A stretch of DNA of 64,000 nucleotides. Origin: an uncultured Candidatus Saccharibacteria bacterium. GTDB lineage: Bacteria; Patescibacteriota; Saccharimonadia; Saccharimonadales; AWTP1-31. Below are positions 8,258 through 47,579 of this stretch, one piece after another. A program made the position numbers and the translations under genes. Location of the stretch: assembly GCA_964629815.1 (NCBI GenBank), contig CAZVTA010000001.1, positions 118,357 to 182,356 of the forward strand, given 5' to 3'. A model generated the notes under the pieces. That model ran no database searches. It saw only the letters and a program-made list of their open reading frames with translations, and was not told where the DNA came from. Each line of letters begins with the position of its first letter. The first letter of the stretch is position 1.

Positions 8258-9055
8258 CTACTTAAGCTCGATGCTTACGGGGCAATGGTCGGATCCCATA
8301 ACGTCTGCATGGATTTCGGCCGCCACAATTCTTTCTTGAAGGGACTTTGAAGCGAGCCAGTAATCTATACGCCAACCAATGTTTCGAGTACGAGCATTTG
8401 CCCAGTGTGTCCACCAAGTGTAGGCCTCGATCTTGTCTGGATATAACGAGCGGAAGGTGTCGATAAAACCTGCATCGAGAAATTTCTGAAAACCCGAACG
8501 TTCTTCGTCGGTAAAACCGTGCTTGCCTATGTTTGGTTTTGGATTTGCGAGGTCGATCTCTTGGTGGGCAACATTTAAGTCGCCACAGAAAAGGACGGGT
8601 TTTGTGGCCTCGAGTTGTTTTACATACGCAAGAAACGCTGGGTCCCAATGCTTTTCGCGAAGCCCGAGCCGCGACAGATCGCCTTTACTGTTTGGTGTGT
8701 AAACGGTAACCACCCAAAAATCTTCAAACTCTGCGGCGATTACCCTTCCCTCGTCGTTTGGGTTACCATAGCTGTCTCCGGTTACAGCATGAGCGCTAAT
8801 GATGTCTTCAGGAAAACCGTCAATATAGCGCAGTGCTTTATGTTTCGAAAAAATTGCCGTGCCACTATAGCCCTTTTTGACGGCACTAAAAAAATGTTCT
8901 TCGTACTGGGGAAGGTCTAGCTCGAACTGTCCCCGTTCGGCTTTGGTTTCTTGTAAACATAGAATATCTGGATCATGTTTTGAAAGAAAATCTTCAAACG
9001 CCCCTTTATTAATTACTGCTCGAATGCCATTTACGTTCCAGGAGTATAGTTTCAT
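8258..9055 (-). CDS. xthA: exodeoxyribonuclease III
   Basis: MKLYSWNVNGIRA...DILCLQETK...GSDHCPV are ExoIII/AP endonuclease family signatures. 265 aa. Confidence 0.9.
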   Translation of the reverse strand: MKLYSWNVNGIRAVINKGAFEDFLSKHDPDILCLQETKAERGQFELDLPQYEEHFFSAVKKGYSGTAIFSKHKALRYIDGFPEDIISAHAVTGDSYGNPNDEGRVIAAEFEDFWVVTVYTPNSKGDLSRLGLREKHWDPAFLAYVKQLEATKPVLFCGDLNVAHQEIDLANPKPNIGKHGFTDEERSGFQKFLDAGFIDTFRSLYPDKIEAYTWWTHWANARTRNIGWRIDYWLASKSLQERIVAAEIHADVMGSDHCPVSIELK

Positions 9056-17702: not shown

Positions 17703-18683
17703 TTACTTTTCCCAAGTGAAGTCTTTGTGGCCAAAATGCCCCCACTGGGCTGTTTTTTCGAACTGAGGTTTTTGTAGGTCGAGCCATTTAACAATGCCAC
17801 GAGGCGATAAGTCGTAGCCTTCGACAACTTTTTGCACGCCGTCTACAACCACGGTTGCTTCCAGTGGCTGGTCGTAGCCAATTGCATAAGCTAAGTAGCA
17901 ATATACTTCTTTGGCATTCTCTTTTTGTAAGTAGTCTATAGCTATTTTTCGCGCTGCATAGGCGGCAGAGCGGTCTACCTTGCTTGAGTCTTTGCCGCTA
18001 AAGCAGCCACCACCAATTGGGACGCTTGGGCCGTAGTTGTCTACAACCAGCTTGCGCCCGGTTAGGCCGGTGTCGGCTTCAAAGCCACCAATCTGCCAGT
18101 CACCCGCGGGGTTGATGTGTAAGCGAATTTCGTCGGTTGTTTTTGCAAGGGGTTCGCTTCTTAGCCATTCTCGAACACGAGCTTCAAGTTCGGCCTGCGG
18201 TGCGTTCTGAAAACTCGCTACTGCCGATTCAATAACCCCATCTTTCAGCGTTACTTGAGTTTTACCGTCGAAAGGCCATTTTTCGAAAATATATTGGTTG
18301 AGTTTGCGGCTTAGTACTACTTCGAGTGGTAATAGCTCGGGTGTGTCGTTGCAAGCATAGCCAACCATAATGCCTTGGTCGCCTGCTCCACCCGTATCAA
18401 CGCCCTGCGCAATCTCGGGGCTTTGCTTTACGAGCCGAACCTCTAGCTCTACATCGCCCGCAATGCGTTGTACAATTGGTGCAACATCGGGGTGGCCCGT
18501 GCTAGTAACTTCGCCCACTACAAATACCTTGCCGTGGCCGCCAACGGTTTCAACAGCTACACGGGCTTTGGGGTCTTGTACTAAATATGCATCCAAAATA
18601 GCGTCGGAAATTTGGTCGCAGAGTTTGTCGGGGTGCTTGGGCGAAACACTCTCGGCGGTTTTATAGGTTGTTTGTGCAGACAT
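17703..18683 (-). CDS. metK: S-adenosylmethionine synthetase (short form, 326 aa)
   Basis: AESVSPKHPDKLCDQISDAILDA and GGGCFSGKDSSKVDRSAAYAARKIA are MetK signatures. Confidence 0.9.
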   Translation of the reverse strand: MSAQTTYKTAESVSPKHPDKLCDQISDAILDAYLVQDPKARVAVETVGGHGKVFVVGEVTSTGHPDVAPIVQRIAGDVELEVRLVKQSPEIAQGVDTGGAGDQGIMVGYACNDTPELLPLEVVLSRKLNQYIFEKWPFDGKTQVTLKDGVIESAVASFQNAPQAELEARVREWLRSEPLAKTTDEIRLHINPAGDWQIGGFEADTGLTGRKLVVDNYGPSVPIGGGCFSGKDSSKVDRSAAYAARKIAIDYLQKENAKEVYCYLAYAIGYDQPLEATVVVDGVQKVVEGYDLSPRGIVKWLDLQKPQFEKTAQWGHFGHKDFTWEK

Positions 18684-18840
18684 AAAAAAACTCCTTTCTG
18701 TCTACACCGCTGGGTCGAGTCAGAAGGAGCATGCCTTGCGATATCTTCCCCTTGCGGGCTGAACGTAGCACCGTACCACGAATGGTTGGTTGCTGGTGGG
18801 TCGACGGGTCAGATCCCTCGCCACACTCTTGATACTTAAA
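18684..18840 (-). ncRNA. SAM-I (S-box) riboswitch with terminator/SD-sequestering expression platform
   Basis: The minus strand reads GUAUCAAGAGUGUGGCGAGGGAUCUGACCCG...CAGCAACC...GGUGCUACGUUCAGCCCGC...GGAAGAUAUCG, which matches conserved SAM-I blocks. It is followed by the hairpin CUCCUUCUG...CAGAAAGGAG + U7 that contains the metK RBS, immediately 5' of the metK ATG. Confidence 0.65.
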
Positions 18841-30694: not shown

Positions 30695-30850
30695 AGATGA
30701 AGATTACAATAACATATTGTCTTAAAAAATTCAATAATAAGTCAGAACTTTTTTACAGTTCTGACTTCGTCTATTCCGGCTTGGCTCAGCATACAGGTCA
30801 CAGACTAGAACAGAGCAGCTGAGCCGCTCTGTAAGTAGTTGGTTATTGCT

Positions 30851-31009
30851 CTAGATTTGAGATAAAATCCAGACGCAACCTGCTAGTGAAAGCAGAAAGA
30901 TACTCAATCCAATTGGAGAGCCCCAGCTAAACCACGAACCCCACGCACGCCAATGTTTGTGCGTTCGTTCGTACCAGTCCATCTGCTCTTCTTTTGGTAT
31001 TTTTGACAT
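30851..31009 (-). CDS. small membrane protein (52 aa), not in the ORF track
   Basis: Hand translation: MSKIPKEEQMDWYERTHKHWRAWGSWFSWGSPIGLSIFLLSLAGCVWILSQI. AGGAGT lies 8 nt upstream of the ATG. Confidence 0.4.
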   Translation of the reverse strand: MSKIPKEEQMDWYERTHKHWRAWGSWFSWGSPIGLSIFLLSLAGCVWILSQI

Positions 31010-31146
31010 AGTTTCGACTCCTTATTTATTAATAGTGAGCCTCTTTAGATGCGTGTACCAGTAAAATATGTATTCCTAGAGACGAGGATATTTCTTTGTC
31101 TGGATTTACCAACATTCAGATTATAGCAAAGAGTTAATATATTCAG

Positions 31147-31545
31147 CTAGACGTGTAGTTCAGGAATGACCCATTCTTTGTTTTTAGGGTGTGTAAGAAG
31201 GTCTGGGTAGTATATGGTCAATTCTTCGCCTGGCTTTATGTTACGGGCTGCAAACAACTGCCATTTATGAGTTGCGATGTTTGGATCTCGATCGTGATTG
31301 ATATACCAAAAGACCGACATGAGTGCAAAATTTGCAGGAGCCAAAAACTCGCCAGTCTCGAGCAGCGGACAATATTTTAAGTGTGAGTCAGGTATCTCTT
31401 CTAATGCTAATCGGCGGTTAGTGTTTTCGTGTTCGGGTATGTATAAACGCGTGCCTTGTTGTATTGTGTCTACGGCAAAACAGCCTACGCCAGTGGTGTC
31501 TCTTAGCGACGGGCGTAGCATAAATGCATTTTGTACTGATTCCAT
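31147..31545 (-). CDS. SET-domain protein (putative lysine methyltransferase)
   Basis: GVGCFA (GxG) near the N-terminus, YINHDRDPN (NHSCxPN-like) and ELTIYY (ELTxDY-like). Confidence 0.65.
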   Translation of the reverse strand: MESVQNAFMLRPSLRDTTGVGCFAVDTIQQGTRLYIPEHENTNRRLALEEIPDSHLKYCPLLETGEFLAPANFALMSVFWYINHDRDPNIATHKWQLFAARNIKPGEELTIYYPDLLTHPKNKEWVIPELHV

Positions 31546-31641
31546 TTCAATATTTCATCTCAGCGTCAGTACTTTTGCAAGCTTAAACAAAACAAATCAG
31601 TAGCTTTCGCTAATCTATGCACTGCTATTCGCATAGTCTTT

Positions 31642-31665
31642 GCTTCGGGGAAAGGATGCGCTACG
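31642..31665 (-). repeat. partial duplicate of the tRNA-Asn 3' end (repeat A)
   Basis: The minus strand reads GCGCATCCTTTCCCCGAAGC, matching T-stem 3' + acceptor 3' of the tRNA at 32342-32382 with one mismatch. It shares a further 9 nt with repeat B. Confidence 0.6.
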
Positions 31666-31750
31666 CTAATGCATCATTAGGCAGGTCTACTTTAGTATTG
31701 AGTATTATTTCTAATGTGAGTCAGTATTTTCCTGTTAGCGTTTACTGTAG

Positions 31751-32116
31751 TTATAAGTCTGCTGCGCCAGGAAATTGTTGTTCTATTGCGACATTATAAG
31801 CCATAATGACTTCCCAAAGTGGGCTAGATGTCAACGCATAGGTTTTTTCATCATAGCTTCTAGCATCACGAACAAGGCTTACCATTCCAAGGGGTGAACC
31901 ATTCATTCTGTCTATGGATTCTTTAACTTGGCCGCCGGTCATAATGCTTCGTGGTCTTAATTCTTTGTAACGACCTATAGCTTCACTCACAGTAAACTGG
32001 TGAGGCAGCCGAGGAGCAAATCCCTCTCCGTCAAGAGTTATGATTGCGCATGCAACGTCTATGGTTCTTGGACCGCCGAATAATGCTTCGTTGATCTTTT
32101 CCCGATTTGTAGTCAT
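31751..32116 (-). CDS. hypothetical protein flanked by tRNA-3'-end repeats
   Basis: Start chosen at MTTNREKIN, immediately after a hairpin + T-run. The longer track ORF would run through the terminator and repeat B. No recognised domain. Confidence 0.35.
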   Translation of the reverse strand: MTTNREKINEALFGGPRTIDVACAIITLDGEGFAPRLPHQFTVSEAIGRYKELRPRSIMTGGQVKESIDRMNGSPLGMVSLVRDARSYDEKTYALTSSPLWEVIMAYNVAIEQQFPGAADL

Positions 32117-32118
32117 AA

Positions 32119-32146
32119 AACTAAAAATACCACAAAATGTGGTATT
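32119..32146 (-). terminator. rho-independent terminator
   Basis: The minus strand reads AUACCACAUUUUGUGGUAU followed by UUUUUAGUUUU. Confidence 0.55.
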
Positions 32147-32158
32147 TGTAAATGTCTT

Positions 32159-32247
32159 GGCTCCGAGGAAAGGATGCGCTACGTTTGCACGGACTACGCT
32201 TTTCGATGTAAGCATCTGCACGCTTCGTCCTGTACGAACCTTCGACC
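32159..32247 (-). repeat. partial duplicate of the tRNA-Asn 3' end with a ~60-nt insertion in the T-loop position (repeat B)
   Basis: The minus strand reads GAAGGTCGAAGGTTCG-[60 nt]-GCGCATCCTTTCCTCGGAGCCA, versus the tRNA sequence GGTCGAAGGTTCGAATCCTTTCCCCGGAGCCA. Confidence 0.6.
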
Positions 32248-32382
32248 TTCAAAGTTGATGCTGGCACAAATTTAAGTCGAAGAGCCGTACCCTTCCCAGA
32301 AAAATACAAAAACAGCCCACAAAACGTGAACTGCTTTTGTATGGCTCCGGGGAAAGGATTCGAACCTTCGACCTAGTGGTTA

Positions 32383-32922
32383 CACTTGTTCGTTATTTTC
32401 ATAACGTGTGGACTATATCATCATCCATAAACGGATGTTGGGCGCTGATGAACGATTATTGTTAGGCTCACGTTCTAGTCTCTGAACCTTCCAAACTCCT
32501 TTATCCTAAGCTTGGCTTGGCTGCGGATTACCTTATCTTTCGACGTAGGCTTCCCGACAATTCACCCAATTTTCACTACTTAGTTTCCCAAGTAGGCTGC
32601 TTATAGCCTGCGTGAATTTCCCGATGACAGTTTGCACACAGAAGCACACATTTGTCTGCCTCTGCTTTATTCTTTTCCCAAGATCTTGTAAGTCCACTAG
32701 AGGATATACCAAAATCTTTTTGAGATGCATCTTTGTGGTGAAGATCGAGTGCATTAATACACTCATCGTAACCGCAGATGATGCATGCACCGCCTTTGTA
32801 GTCAACAAGCATTTGTCGGACTTTTTGGCGACGCTTAGCCACTGCCTTCTTGAGATATTCAGCGCGATCGGCATAACTTCGTCTATCTGGCATACACATA
32901 ATTGTATGCCAAAGTGTCGACT
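32383..32922 (-). mobile_element. group I intron (about 540 nt) in a tRNA anticodon loop, carrying an HNH ORF
   Basis: Contains the conserved group I core elements P (AUUGUCGGGAAGCC), Q (UAAUCCGCAGCCAAGCC), R (GGUUCAGAGACUAGAACG) and S (GAUAUAGUCCACACG). The 5' exon ends in U and the intron ends in G. Confidence 0.8.
32576..32899 (-). CDS. HNH homing endonuclease encoded in the intron
   Basis: CIICGYDEC...LDLHHKD...CVLLCANCHREIHAG is an HNH motif with two CxxC pairs. Its start codon lies in the loop of a 9-bp hairpin (UGGCAUACA/UGUAUGCCA). Confidence 0.8.
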   Translation of the reverse strand: MCMPDRRSYADRAEYLKKAVAKRRQKVRQMLVDYKGGACIICGYDECINALDLHHKDASQKDFGISSSGLTRSWEKNKAEADKCVLLCANCHREIHAGYKQPTWETK

Positions 32923-33035
32923 ACAGCCACCCGCTCTACCGCTGAGCTACCCCGGAATATGCAAATAAGGTTCTTTGCGAAATACGCAACCGCCAAATTA
33001 TATCTAAAATAACCCCTTATGGCAAGCGGTGCGAT

Positions 33036-38708: not shown

Positions 38709-39290
38709 CTATTCTACCTCGAATGTGAGCTGTCCTGGAACGACTTTTCGCCGACGAACTGCACGCTGATTATTTATCGCAGCTGTTACGGGCTCGAGGT
38801 GTCTTGGGTAGCAACAGCGCTTATTGTCGCACAAATGATCGAGCAAGTTAGAACCCGGGTGACCTACGAATTGCATGTATAATCCGCGGTGCGCCAGCAT
38901 AGGTACTTTGTCGAATGAATCACGGTTGTGGATCTGACCATAGCGCGCTCGTTTAATATTTGTGCCGGGGAATGTGTCGGTACCGTCTTTGTAGACGGGT
39001 TTTTCCCAACAGCCTAGCTCTGCATTGAACGTAATGTTGGCGATGTCTTTTGGTGATAGTAGTGGGCGATCGTTGGCAGCAATAAACGGCTCTGGTAAGC
39101 CTGAAGATTCAATAACAAGTGCTTGTAGGATGGCTAGCTCGGCAATGCTGAGCGCTAAAGGCGGTAGGACTTCGCCGCTGTCACGTACGACAGGGGCGCT
39201 GTGTTCGGCGTGTGTTAATTCAGTAGTACGAACTACAAAAAAATGTTCGCCACCACATAGATAAAATCTTTCGGCACACTCCTCTGTCAT
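38709..39290 (-). CDS. free-standing HNH endonuclease (phage-type)
   Basis: YGQIHNRDSFDKVPMLAHRGLYMQFVGHPGSNLLDHLCDNKRCCYPRHLEPVTAAINNQR is an HNH/AP2-like nuclease motif. Confidence 0.6.
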   Translation of the reverse strand: MTEECAERFYLCGGEHFFVVRTTELTHAEHSAPVVRDSGEVLPPLALSIAELAILQALVIESSGLPEPFIAANDRPLLSPKDIANITFNAELGCWEKPVYKDGTDTFPGTNIKRARYGQIHNRDSFDKVPMLAHRGLYMQFVGHPGSNLLDHLCDNKRCCYPRHLEPVTAAINNQRAVRRRKVVPGQLTFEVE

Positions 39291-43891: not shown

Positions 43892-44753
43892 TCGACAGCA
43901 GCTTAAAACACGCATTGGCTCGGTTAAAAATACCAAGCAAATTACCAAGGCTATGGAGCTGGTTAGTGCTAGTAAAATGCGCCGTGCCCAAGAGCTTGCT
44001 AATCGGAGCCGCGAATATCGAAATATGGCACGGCATATTCTGCTGCGACTCCGTGAATTGACCGACGTATCGAAACACCCGTTGTATGTGCAGCGTCCTG
44101 TAAACACGCGGCTACATATTGTAGTAACCAGCAACCGCGGGCTGGCTGGTGCGTATAACAGCAACGTACTGCGCCGCCTCACGACCGAACTGCAGGCCGA
44201 TAAAGACGCGGGTATTGCAAGCAAGGTTATTGTGGTTGGTAAACAAGGTGCAAAGTTTATTGTTCGGTTTGATGATGTTGAAGTATTAGCCGTCTATGCC
44301 GACTTCCCTGACCACCCGTCGGCCAACGATATTCGCCCAATTATGGAATCAGTCAAAGAAGCGTTTACAACTGGAGCAGTCGATGCGGTTGACGTGCTTT
44401 ATACCGACTACAAGTCAAGCATCAATCAAGAAGTAACCGCAGAACGAATTTTACCTGCTGCACACAGCGATACTGAAATTGAATCGGTTGAAGTTGTTGA
44501 TGTTGAGTTTGAGCCGTCGCCACAAACTGTGCTTAATGCCGTTACCGAACGACTTATCGAAGCACAGTTATCGCAGGCATTTTTAGAGTCGAGTGCCAGC
44601 GAACAGAGTATGCGCATGATGGCCATGAAGAGTGCAACCGACAATGCCAGCGACCTGATAGACGACCTAACACTTGCTTTTAACACAGCGCGCCAAGCAG
44701 CAATTACACAAGAACTCGCAGAAATTACCGGTGGTGTGGAGGCGATAAAATGA
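43884..44753 (+). CDS. atpG: F0F1 ATP synthase subunit gamma
   Basis: MASRQQLKTRIGSVKNTKQITKAMELVSASKMRRAQE. Confidence 0.9.
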   Translation: MASRQQLKTRIGSVKNTKQITKAMELVSASKMRRAQELANRSREYRNMARHILLRLRELTDVSKHPLYVQRPVNTRLHIVVTSNRGLAGAYNSNVLRRLTTELQADKDAGIASKVIVVGKQGAKFIVRFDDVEVLAVYADFPDHPSANDIRPIMESVKEAFTTGAVDAVDVLYTDYKSSINQEVTAERILPAAHSDTEIESVEVVDVEFEPSPQTVLNAVTERLIEAQLSQAFLESSASEQSMRMMAMKSATDNASDLIDDLTLAFNTARQAAITQELAEITGGVEAIK

Positions 44754-45043
44754 GCGGGGTGCATGTAACTGGCCAGGTAGGCGCTGATATTGAAGCATTG
44801 GTTGGAGATGCTAAAGCGGGATATGCAGAGGCAATTGACAAGTTGGCATCTGGGTACGTTTCTACTGTAGAAGTTCGTACAGGTCGGTTTGGTGGTTTTC
44901 GTGGTGCAGAAGTGGTCGTCGATGAGACTGCTAGGCAAAACGCAATTTCGTTGATTGAAGCTATGATAGGAAGTATTGTTACAAAAGCATACCATTCTGG
45001 TCGCCAAGCAGAGAGCCTTGGTCGTGCGGAGGAAGCAAAATGA
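44750..45043 (+). CDS. hypothetical protein (97 aa) inserted after atpG
   Basis: ATGA overlap with the atpG stop. Gly/Ala-rich, no recognised domain. Confidence 0.45.
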   Translation: MSGVHVTGQVGADIEALVGDAKAGYAEAIDKLASGYVSTVEVRTGRFGGFRGAEVVVDETARQNAISLIEAMIGSIVTKAYHSGRQAESLGRAEEAK

Positions 45044-45530
45044 GCCAGCAAGAACTTGGTTTTCCGGACTACGTAAGTCTCGAACGTTACCCACACGAGC
45101 CGATTGTTAAGGACATGGCCATAGACCTTGTGACTATTGCCGAACAAAAAAGCAGCCGGCTACCCCGCCGAGTACGTAAAGCATTTCATAACAATAAAGA
45201 TCTAATCGTCAAAGGTGCGCAGTGGTCAACGACAATCTTTGTAACAGGACAATTTGAGTACGAGTCCGACTTGCAACAGCCGGAACTGTTTAGTGAAGTT
45301 CATGCCGACGCGTTGAATGAACGTGTGCTAAGAGGCGCTCAGTATGTGGGTGCAGCAATAATGCACGACGTAACACGGACTATGCCGTTTCGTTATCGCT
45401 ATAATCCGATCGTTCGTATTGATGATAAAAGAATGTCAGTAGCAGATTGGGCCGAGAACGTATGGGCACCAAACTATACCAAACGTTTTGTGATGGCCGC
45501 AACAATGCATGATGCTCGGGAGATGCAGTA

Positions 45531-45531
<1 letters not shown>
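45040..45531 (+). CDS. hypothetical protein (163 aa)
   Basis: ATGA overlap with the upstream ORF. No recognised domain. Confidence 0.45.

Positions 45532-47579
<2,048 letters not shown>

Follow-up and report, generated by a model that had tools for sequence, protein, structure and literature searches.

Immediately downstream of the tRNA-Asn gene in a 64,000-nt (64-kb) stretch of DNA from an uncultured Candidatus Saccharibacteria bacterium (contig CAZVTA010000001.1, positions 118,357–182,356; hereafter the window), two partial copies of the tRNA 3′-end, termed copies A and B, bracket a single open reading frame (ORF) of 121 codons, ORF121. We read these copies as recombination scars, the edges of small mobile cassettes that were added serially at the tRNA-Asn 3′-end (probability about 0.6), and the locus is accordingly described here as a tRNA-anchored accretion of integrase-less elements. 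Taken alone, two att-like scars are a fairly ordinary footprint of tRNA-targeted insertion; the part worth following is that promoter-bearing cassette arrays recur at tRNA-Asn. All features of this finding lie on the minus strand, coordinates are given within the window, and the stack reads in order tRNA-Asn, copy B, ORF121 cassette, copy A, a SET-domain gene, a 52-aa gene and a distal element C.

32956–32923, minus strand: 5′ exon of tRNA-Asn(GUU), TCCGGGGTAGCTCAGCGGTAGAGCGGGTGGCTGT, read from the sequence.
32382–32342, minus strand: 3′ exon of tRNA-Asn(GUU), ending in ...GGTTCGAATCCTTTCCCCGGAGCCA, the reference copy of the repeat.
32300–32249, minus strand: non-coding 5′ part of the copy B region, with a degenerate GAAGGGTACG (tRNA: GAAGGTTCG) and with CTCTTCGAC, complementary to GTCGAAG.
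32248–32235, minus strand: left block of copy B, AGGTCGAAGGTTCG, identical at 14/14 positions to tRNA 32374–32361 (variable loop, T-stem and start of the T-loop).
32234–32176, minus strand: 59-nt insert in copy B, standing for one T-loop base; its last 8 nt, CGTAGCGC, are common to copy A.
32175–32158, minus strand: right block of copy B, ATCCTTTCCTCGGAGCCA, 17/18 identical to the tRNA 3′-end.
32152–32124, minus strand: promoter-like palindrome TTTACAAATACCACATTTTGTGGTATTTT, with −35 TTTACA, a 17-nt spacer and a TG-extended −10 TATTTT; its hairpin (32147–32125) is a weak terminator.
32116–31751, minus strand: ORF121 (121 aa), function unknown.
31675–31658, minus strand: upstream arm of copy A, GATGCATTAGCGTAGCGC, which shares homology with the end of the insert in copy B.
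31657–31638, minus strand: copy A, ATCCTTTCCCCGAAGCAAAG, of which 31657–31640 is 16/18 identical to the tRNA 3′-end; the AGAC downstream is common to copy B.
31636–31615, minus strand: small hairpin after copy A, CTATGC-N10-GCATAG, read from the sequence.

The repeats far exceed chance. The pattern ATCCTTTCCYCGRAGC occurs exactly three times on the minus strand, at 32359–32344 (tRNA), 32175–32160 (copy B) and 31657–31642 (copy A), against a chance expectation of 0.10 matches with up to two mismatches, and the observed number was reached in none of 100 shuffles. An initial annotation made from the letters alone had proposed that degenerate repeats of the tRNA-Asn 3′-end flank one ORF, with some 60 nt inserted at the T-loop position of copy B and with extra sequence common to both copies; the repeats proved real, the insertion measures 59 nt, and the distances from the tRNA end needed only slight correction (copy B starts at 167 nt and copy A at 685 nt, where 165 and ~680 nt had been given). 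Aligned with each other, the copies agree at 32 of 38 nt with one 2-nt gap, and the alignment takes in the extra sequence, CGTAGCGC upstream and AGAC downstream, both of which are found in A and B and neither in the tRNA. Common flanks of this kind, missing from the tRNA, are what the arms of related elements would leave.

Copy B also retains tRNA positions ~42–56, separated from its 3′ block by the 59-nt insert, and may descend from an earlier 3′ half of the tRNA that was displaced, the 59 nt at its T-loop position being what is left of a former insert. Farther 5′, the copy B region bears a weak similarity to the tRNA 5′ half that we do not claim as homology, and the idea that copy B is a full-length decayed tRNA-Asn was rejected on account of that weakness. 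Base composition reveals no clear compositional island around the segment.

A comparison with related genomes, proposed as a check in the initial annotation, favours insertion. The order of ATP synthase, CobA, SNase, GT2, SmpB and Nudix genes is conserved in contigs L130–L137 and ends at tRNA-Asn. Behind the tRNA, L130–L132 carry resistance-like cargo (AadA_C, APH and ABC-F) alongside a prophage represented by phage genes and a large serine recombinase, and copies A and B were not found at that position in these three contigs. In L145, ~350 nt of non-coding DNA separate the tRNA from a Fic gene, after which come a degenerate tRNA-end repeat (CCCGGGAG..GAGCCA) and a block that holds a 52-aa gene. 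This last block consists of promoter, 5′ untranslated region (UTR), ORF and terminator, as it does in the window, where its ORF is 77% identical by tblastn and the DNA alignment is continuous from ~31125; the interval between tRNA-Asn and this anchor thus contains copy B, ORF121, copy A and the SET gene in the window genome and Fic in L145. The comparison is one of presence and absence among distant relatives (Nudix proteins ~50% identical) rather than strains, and both L145 and L130 were found through the Nudix protein, independently of the palindrome used for the wider survey below. As a separate observation, L130 carries a T-arm-like fragment, GAGAGTTCGAACCCAGTCC, at 8720–8760, ~60 nt past the tRNA-Asn terminator, which may be an att remnant of the downstream island or prophage with the large serine recombinase.

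An alternative account of the copies is that tRNA-Asn was duplicated in tandem long ago, that the duplicate decayed where it stood and that the intervening genes were inherited vertically. The two separate tRNA blocks of copy B, the degenerate T-arm-like piece upstream of it and the lack of a recombinase in the window ORFs scanned would all suit such local pseudogene debris. We nevertheless consider it very unlikely, as relatives whose tRNA is the same or nearly so have wholly different content at the locus, equivalent boundaries surround the ORF121 and Fic cassettes at other loci, and the unit of boundary plus promoter is conserved across genomes.

ORF121 itself recurs at other loci. Its product, called a protein of unknown function in the initial annotation, indeed has no match in Pfam, PHROGs or PADLOC; only three homologues exist among 5.8 × 10^9 proteins, a profile search with HMMER against a representative library of 1.8 × 10^9 proteins added one remote homologue, and the AlphaFold2 model (predicted local distance difference test score, 41.5) was too poor for a fold search. 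One of the three homologues is the same locus in Logan contigs L001 and L002, and the other two, at 78% and 69% identity, lie in unrelated neighbourhoods (L003 and L004), which places the cassette in three different neighbourhoods. Homology across loci starts where the tRNA-like block ends, at GAGCCAAG/CATTTACAAATACCAC, and runs to a few nucleotides past the stop codon; the window and L003 agree in the position of its left edge (GAGCCAAG), and L004 agrees approximately. The boundary in the window (copy B) and its counterpart upstream of the L003 homologue are identical in 57/61 aligned columns, gaps counted. The L003 homologue further has its own flanking direct repeat of 29 nt (...CCAACGCCACCGAGAGCCA and ...CCACCGCTACCGAGAGCCA), and the flanks in L004 are more degenerate.

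Between copy B and ORF121 lies the promoter-like palindrome, which occurs once in the window. The initial annotation had taken the hairpin here for a terminator, an assignment that holds in part: the hairpin is a weak terminator, and the same sequence is equally promoter-like (TTTACA-17-TATTTT). The ATG of ORF121 (32116) follows the −10 element by 7 nt, and this spacing suggests, from sequence, a leaderless mRNA. The palindrome unit abuts a GAGCCA end in L003, L010, L064 and L069 as well, and in L003 the same palindrome also precedes a neighbouring methyltransferase gene.

A metagenome scan seeded with the palindrome alone returned 120 matches, mostly unrelated terminators, and about ten informative Saccharibacteria-like contigs; the GAGCCA ends and the boundary elements described here were not part of the query. 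These contigs have a common architecture, of which the window locus is a small example and in which one-gene cassettes on the same strand are divided by short separators that end in GAGCCA, 4 nt before the promoter palindrome. Across seven junctions, GAGCCA stands exactly 4 nt before TTGAC[A/T] or TTTACA and the ATG 6–10 nt past the −10 element; the corresponding gap to the −35 element in the window is 5 nt. The array starts at a genuine tRNA-Asn in L064 and L145. In L064, that gene is intron-less and is followed directly by AATA-TTGACAAATAGCAC..GTGCTATTTT-ATATTT-ATG and at least five same-strand cassettes with separators ending in GAGCCA or GGGCCA; the unit formed by the last 11 nt of the tRNA, 4 nt, the promoter and the ATG is duplicated inside the array (46/53 identical, one 1-nt gap). 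L069 holds four cassettes with five boundaries, and L047, L010, L119 and L004 hold one to two cassettes each. The boundary-plus-promoter unit of window copy B matches one in L010 in 49/51 aligned columns, gaps counted. Two families of boundary element recur across contigs, X (...GGTTATAACTTCCTCTATCGTGGTGAGCCA) and Y (GTTGCGAAG...GGGAGCCA), and boundary elements are more alike within one genome than between genomes.

The cargo of the arrays is of a typical accessory kind: it includes clear Pfam matches to Fic, ASCH and DUF4097, and many ORFs have no match. A match to a type VI secretion system immunity domain (Tdi1_C) in one L069 cassette is weak (26.2 bits, cut-off 27.4), a deoxyribosyltransferase-like match falls just below the Pfam cut-off, and a BrnT/BrnA-like toxin–antitoxin pair in L064 was read from translation only. 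Individual cassettes recur between arrays: Fic is common to L145 and L119 (74% identity), and the third cassette of L069 and a 68-aa ORF of L119 belong to one family (67%). The initial annotation had suggested remnants of small or decayed integrative elements, a label that undersells the pattern, which recurs as arrays of intact promoter-bearing one-gene cassettes.

Two further observations concern other repeats. A different multi-copy unit, consisting of a conserved stretch of ~30 nt (..CTCGCTCTCGCTCGGTCGCTGCAATAAAGA..) followed by TTGACAAATACCACGAGAGTGGTATTTT, is present in L034 (3 copies), L081 (2 copies) and L078 (1 copy), its copies sharing a strand at spacings of 1.2–2.3 kb, and may represent a related system of repeats that bear promoters. 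In L010 (5400–5610), a tRNA-Gln(CTG) gene on the opposite strand is accompanied, ~100 nt off, by a partial duplicate of its 5′ half that adjoins a cassette boundary; this duplicate is another tRNA-fragment relic in a variable region.

We also considered whether the repeats are instead parts of a functional tRNA-derived RNA, whether a tRNA trailer, a tRNA-like small RNA from the copy B region or processing and stability signals at mRNA 3′-ends. The copy B region folds better than most shuffled sequences (z = −2.7; 2/200 shuffles fold as well), its 5′ GGGAAGG pairs with its 3′ CCUUUCC, it is placed between a terminator and the promoter/terminator, and the X element can form an 11-pair hairpin that ends just before CCA. 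Against this, Rfam gave no match at copy B even at E ≤ 10 and ARAGORN called no tRNA or transfer-messenger RNA (tmRNA) there; the B region is missing in relatives with the same tRNA, so the arrangement is not a conserved one, as the initial annotation would have expected of a structured RNA. The fold is moreover accounted for by complementary tRNA-derived pieces (GAAGG/CCTTT and GTCGAAG/CTTCGAC), the X consensus reaches only −3.5 kcal/mol and shows several broken pairs against a single compensatory one, and copy A has no upstream pairing partner. We regard this alternative as quite improbable. A narrower candidate, copy B as a tmRNA or tRNA-like gene, had been prompted by the nearby smpB, a 5′ GGGAAGGGUACGGCUCUUCGAC like the tmRNA 5′-end and a G3-U70-type pair; it was rejected for want of an ARAGORN or Rfam signal, of CCA after the putative acceptor stem and of a plausible T-arm, and for its absence from relatives.

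The tRNA-Asn gene that heads the stack is itself interrupted.

32922–32383, minus strand: group I intron of 540 nt; Rfam RF00028 matches at 32651–32390 (98.9 bits, E = 2e-24).
32899–32576, minus strand: HNH endonuclease ORF inside the tRNA-Asn intron (PHROG HNH, E = 9e-30).
32342–32304, minus strand: terminator hairpin directly 3′ of tRNA-Asn, 18 pairs followed by a T-run.

The intron sits in the anticodon loop, between anticodon nucleotides 35 and 36, and since its 540 nt split that loop, ARAGORN did not call the tRNA-Asn(GUU) at 32956–32342; once joined, the exons match the intron-less tRNA-Asn of the relative L130 (8591–8665) exactly. The gene is preceded by a promoter-like site (TTGCCA-17-TATAAT), and the apex of its terminator, CAC-GTTTT-GTG, resembles the apex of the cassette palindrome. 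Intron-less tRNA-Asn genes are present in L130–L132, L064 and L145, those of L130–L132 being identical to the spliced window tRNA. The anticodon loop is an assembly break point in seven samples (contig ends L008, L009 and L133–L137), and the same-strain contig L001 starts again inside the intron; these breaks suggest heterogeneity in intron presence or absence, or multi-copy intron or HNH sequence.

An intron with an HNH ORF inside tRNA-Asn raises the alternative that HNH cleavage of the gene and sloppy repair duplicated the 3′ exon region, in keeping with assemblies of seven samples that break exactly in the anticodon loop and with the amount of 3′ exon kept in copy B. Such homing is largely excluded by L064 and L145, where arrays bounded in the same way stand at tRNA-Asn genes without an intron; furthermore, homology in copy B does not start at the intron insertion site, and the presence of ORF121 in three neighbourhoods would go unexplained. 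We judge this origin extremely unlikely, and the intron is context for the finding, not what caused the repeats.

Serial insertion of cassettes at the tRNA end, the reading we prefer, would be explained most simply as follows. An incoming cassette, presumably a circle, would carry a unit made of a tRNA-Asn 3′ segment (ending in GAGCCA) and, a few bases on, the promoter palindrome. A single crossover of this unit with the chromosomal tRNA end or with an existing repeat would insert the cassette and duplicate the unit, as in Campbell-type integration; one duplicate would keep the tRNA intact, and the other would become a boundary and then decay. Repeated insertion would produce a stack, by accretion, and a sigma-70-type promoter of its own together with a leaderless start would let each cassette be expressed wherever it is inserted. 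A site-specific crossover within the last ~20 nt of the tRNA would fit both the short arms that A and B have in common and the constant left edge of the ORF121 cassette, and our preferred guess for the recombinase is a site-specific enzyme that acts in trans and is not encoded nearby. Excision would yield the junction ...GATGCATTAGCGTAGCGC + ATCC..GAGCCA + AGACATTTACAAATACC, and an empty site would read either as a B/A hybrid followed by AGACTATGCGAATAGC or as tRNA-Asn joined directly to a downstream unit.

Several results weigh against serial insertion. The 37 window ORFs scanned, among them every ORF from 27.5 to 35.6 kb, yielded no integrase or recombinase Pfam domain, in agreement with the initial annotation, and none was found in the larger ORFs scanned beside the arrays in L064, L119 and L010. 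The same-strain contigs L001, L002 and L007 have an arrangement identical to that of the window. The segment between the tRNA and copy B contains no ORF and the SET gene has no clear right-hand repeat, which leaves the history of events less than clean. Most of the extra arrays were retrieved through the palindrome, an ascertainment bias. Beyond GAGCCA, the X element has no significant similarity to tRNA-Asn (p = 0.3–0.5 against shuffles); the candidate that X is a diverged tRNA-Asn 3′ half was rejected because its alignment scores are no better than those of shuffles, and for X we claim only the GAGCCA end and the fixed spacing to the promoter. A tRNA origin of boundaries is demonstrable only for window copies A and B, one L064 element (e4) and the L145 repeat. 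The att character given to the copies in the initial annotation accordingly stands as to tRNA-derived repeats and a segment that is variable in relatives; an integrase as maker of the repeats is conjectural.

Searches for a donor element were likewise negative. Scans of viral contigs with the palindrome, the X element and the tRNA-Asn end returned nothing, or just phage tRNA-Gln genes and matches in coding sequence; BLAST of 30700–32345 against plasmids and phages gave no match; and no matching attP-bearing element emerged from the viral, plasmid and phage searches. As neither a recombinase nor an attP-bearing element was found, homologous recombination after DNA uptake remains a serious rival, albeit one to which we assign a low probability. 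Saccharibacteria are naturally competent, and cassettes could be shuffled without a dedicated recombinase if incoming DNA recombined in RecA fashion between boundary units of ~50–90 nt, the repeats then being portable homology and not att sites. No recombinase was found near any array in the ORFs scanned, and the units are alike across genomes (49/51 and 57/61) and within L064 (46/53), which may suffice for short homology. On the other hand, tracts of this length lie at the bottom of the range for RecA-type recombination, A and B have short element-type arms in common, and the left edge of ORF121 at one point in the window and L003, and nearly so in L004, suits a fixed crossover better.

The recurring layout would allow a broader and more tentative proposal, which we think somewhat likelier to fail than to hold: Saccharibacteria may possess a previously undescribed cassette system of integron-like layout, in which promoter-bearing, leaderless one-gene cassettes are anchored at the tRNA-Asn 3′-end, delimited by GAGCCA-ending elements 4 nt before the next promoter, and moved from genome to genome either by a recombinase encoded elsewhere or through competence with short-homology recombination. 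The window would be a two-to-three-cassette example. A literature search found no description of cassette arrays or tRNA-Asn islands in Saccharibacteria.

The remaining parts of the stack lie beyond copy A.

31545–31147, minus strand: SET-domain ORF (Pfam SET, E = 2.9e-9), between copy A and the conserved anchor gene.
31125–30851, minus strand: conserved anchor block, comprising a 52-aa membrane ORF (31009–30851) with its own TATAAT promoter and 5′ UTR.
30811–30782, minus strand: element C, GTTCTAGTCTGTGACCTGTATGCTGAGCCA, a distal boundary outside the coordinates of the initial annotation.
30768–30739, minus strand: terminator GAAGTCAGAACTGTAAAAAAGTTCTGACTT after element C; the module of C and terminator is near-identical in L069 and L004.

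The SET ORF is probably a second piece of cargo. No recognisable repeat marks its right boundary, and SET homologues occur in other contexts without such boundary elements. A scan of species genomes for SET gene order was uninformative (in L005 and L006 the gene stands in unrelated surroundings, away from any tRNA). In L146 (7384–8504), which is more distantly related, a SET gene lies directly upstream of the Nudix gene; SET thus recurs next to this region, though within the variable interval in the window.

Elsewhere in the window, a second, free-standing HNH_3 / His-Me finger endonuclease ORF (38709–39290, minus strand) stands beside a cobA-like gene, between blocks that are syntenic in relatives. 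Three ORFs of 97, 163 and 214 aa (44750–46175, plus strand) separate the atpG-like from the atpD-like gene in the ATP synthase operon, and Pfam gave no match for the 163- and 214-aa ORFs. A SAM riboswitch (RF00162, 50.7 bits; 18738–18838, minus strand) precedes ORF 17703–18683, which we take to be metK-like.

To our knowledge, few mobile elements have been described for Saccharibacteria or other bacteria of the Candidate Phyla Radiation, whose genomes are tiny and whose acquisition of accessory genes is poorly understood. If our reading is true, a docking site behind tRNA-Asn for ready-to-express one-gene cassettes would offer a compact route of gene flow and strain-level variation, and the same site would lend itself naturally as a neutral landing pad when these organisms are engineered genetically. 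Much of the variation at such loci is probably missing from metagenome-assembled genomes, because arrays and the tRNA intron break short-read assemblies here.

Among known systems, the locus resembles a tRNA-targeted genomic island in that same-strand 3′-end repeats lie downstream of an intact tRNA and break a conserved gene order; unlike a typical island, it has no integrase gene in the window ORFs scanned. The rAID-1 loci of Bacteroidales are recombinase-associated arrays of orphan immunity genes that stand beside a tyrosine recombinase and are not tRNA-anchored. By description, our arrays are like them in their small accessory or immunity-type genes and promoter-bearing intergenic repeats, and differ in being anchored at a tRNA with no adjoining tyrosine recombinase found in the ORFs scanned.

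An integron array is headed by intI with attI beside it, has attC sites with RYYYAAC/GTTRRRY cores and relies on a common Pc promoter. The cassettes described here share with integron arrays a uniform orientation, mostly single ORFs, short recombination-type separators, recurrence between arrays, boundary elements that are more alike within a genome, and cargo rich in small unknown and toxin-related proteins. Unlike integrons, the array begins at tRNA-Asn, with Nudix and SmpB genes upstream and no adjacent intI (nor was a recombinase found at L064), each cassette has its own promoter rather than a common Pc, and the boundary elements lack the attC cores GTTRRRY/RYYYAAC in alignment and fold weakly (−3.5 kcal/mol).

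A closer parallel in form is offered by the ssrA islands of Dehalococcoides, in which tandem, same-strand direct repeats of the gene 3′-end run from the T-loop on and some islands have no integration module (PMC3146451). There, too, the repeats start in the T-loop and stack in tandem within a highly variable region, and a short non-gene motif stands just upstream of each repeat (PMC3146451), a place taken here by CGTAGCGC. Those islands are kilobases long and many have a serine-recombinase module beside attL (PMC3146451), whereas the units here measure ~0.5–1.3 kb and usually hold one ORF, with their own promoter abutting the repeat and no recombinase in the scanned window ORFs or beside the other arrays.

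Cis-mobilizable elements (CIMEs) carry attL/attR-type repeats without integration or transfer genes and form tandems by integration into a resident att site; they are decayed integrative and conjugative elements (ICEs) or integrative and mobilizable elements (IMEs), mobilised by a related ICE (Guedon et al. 2017, PMC5704250). The B-to-A cassette is like a CIME in its att-type repeats, its one ORF without detectable domain and its lack of integration and transfer genes. It differs in that no ICE or IME relative, and no related integrase-bearing element, was identified in the viral, plasmid and phage searches, and a literature search found no conjugative elements documented for these organisms. 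Finally, whereas CIMEs are products of decay, the cassettes here look designed, with an intact promoter, a single ORF and a standard spacing.

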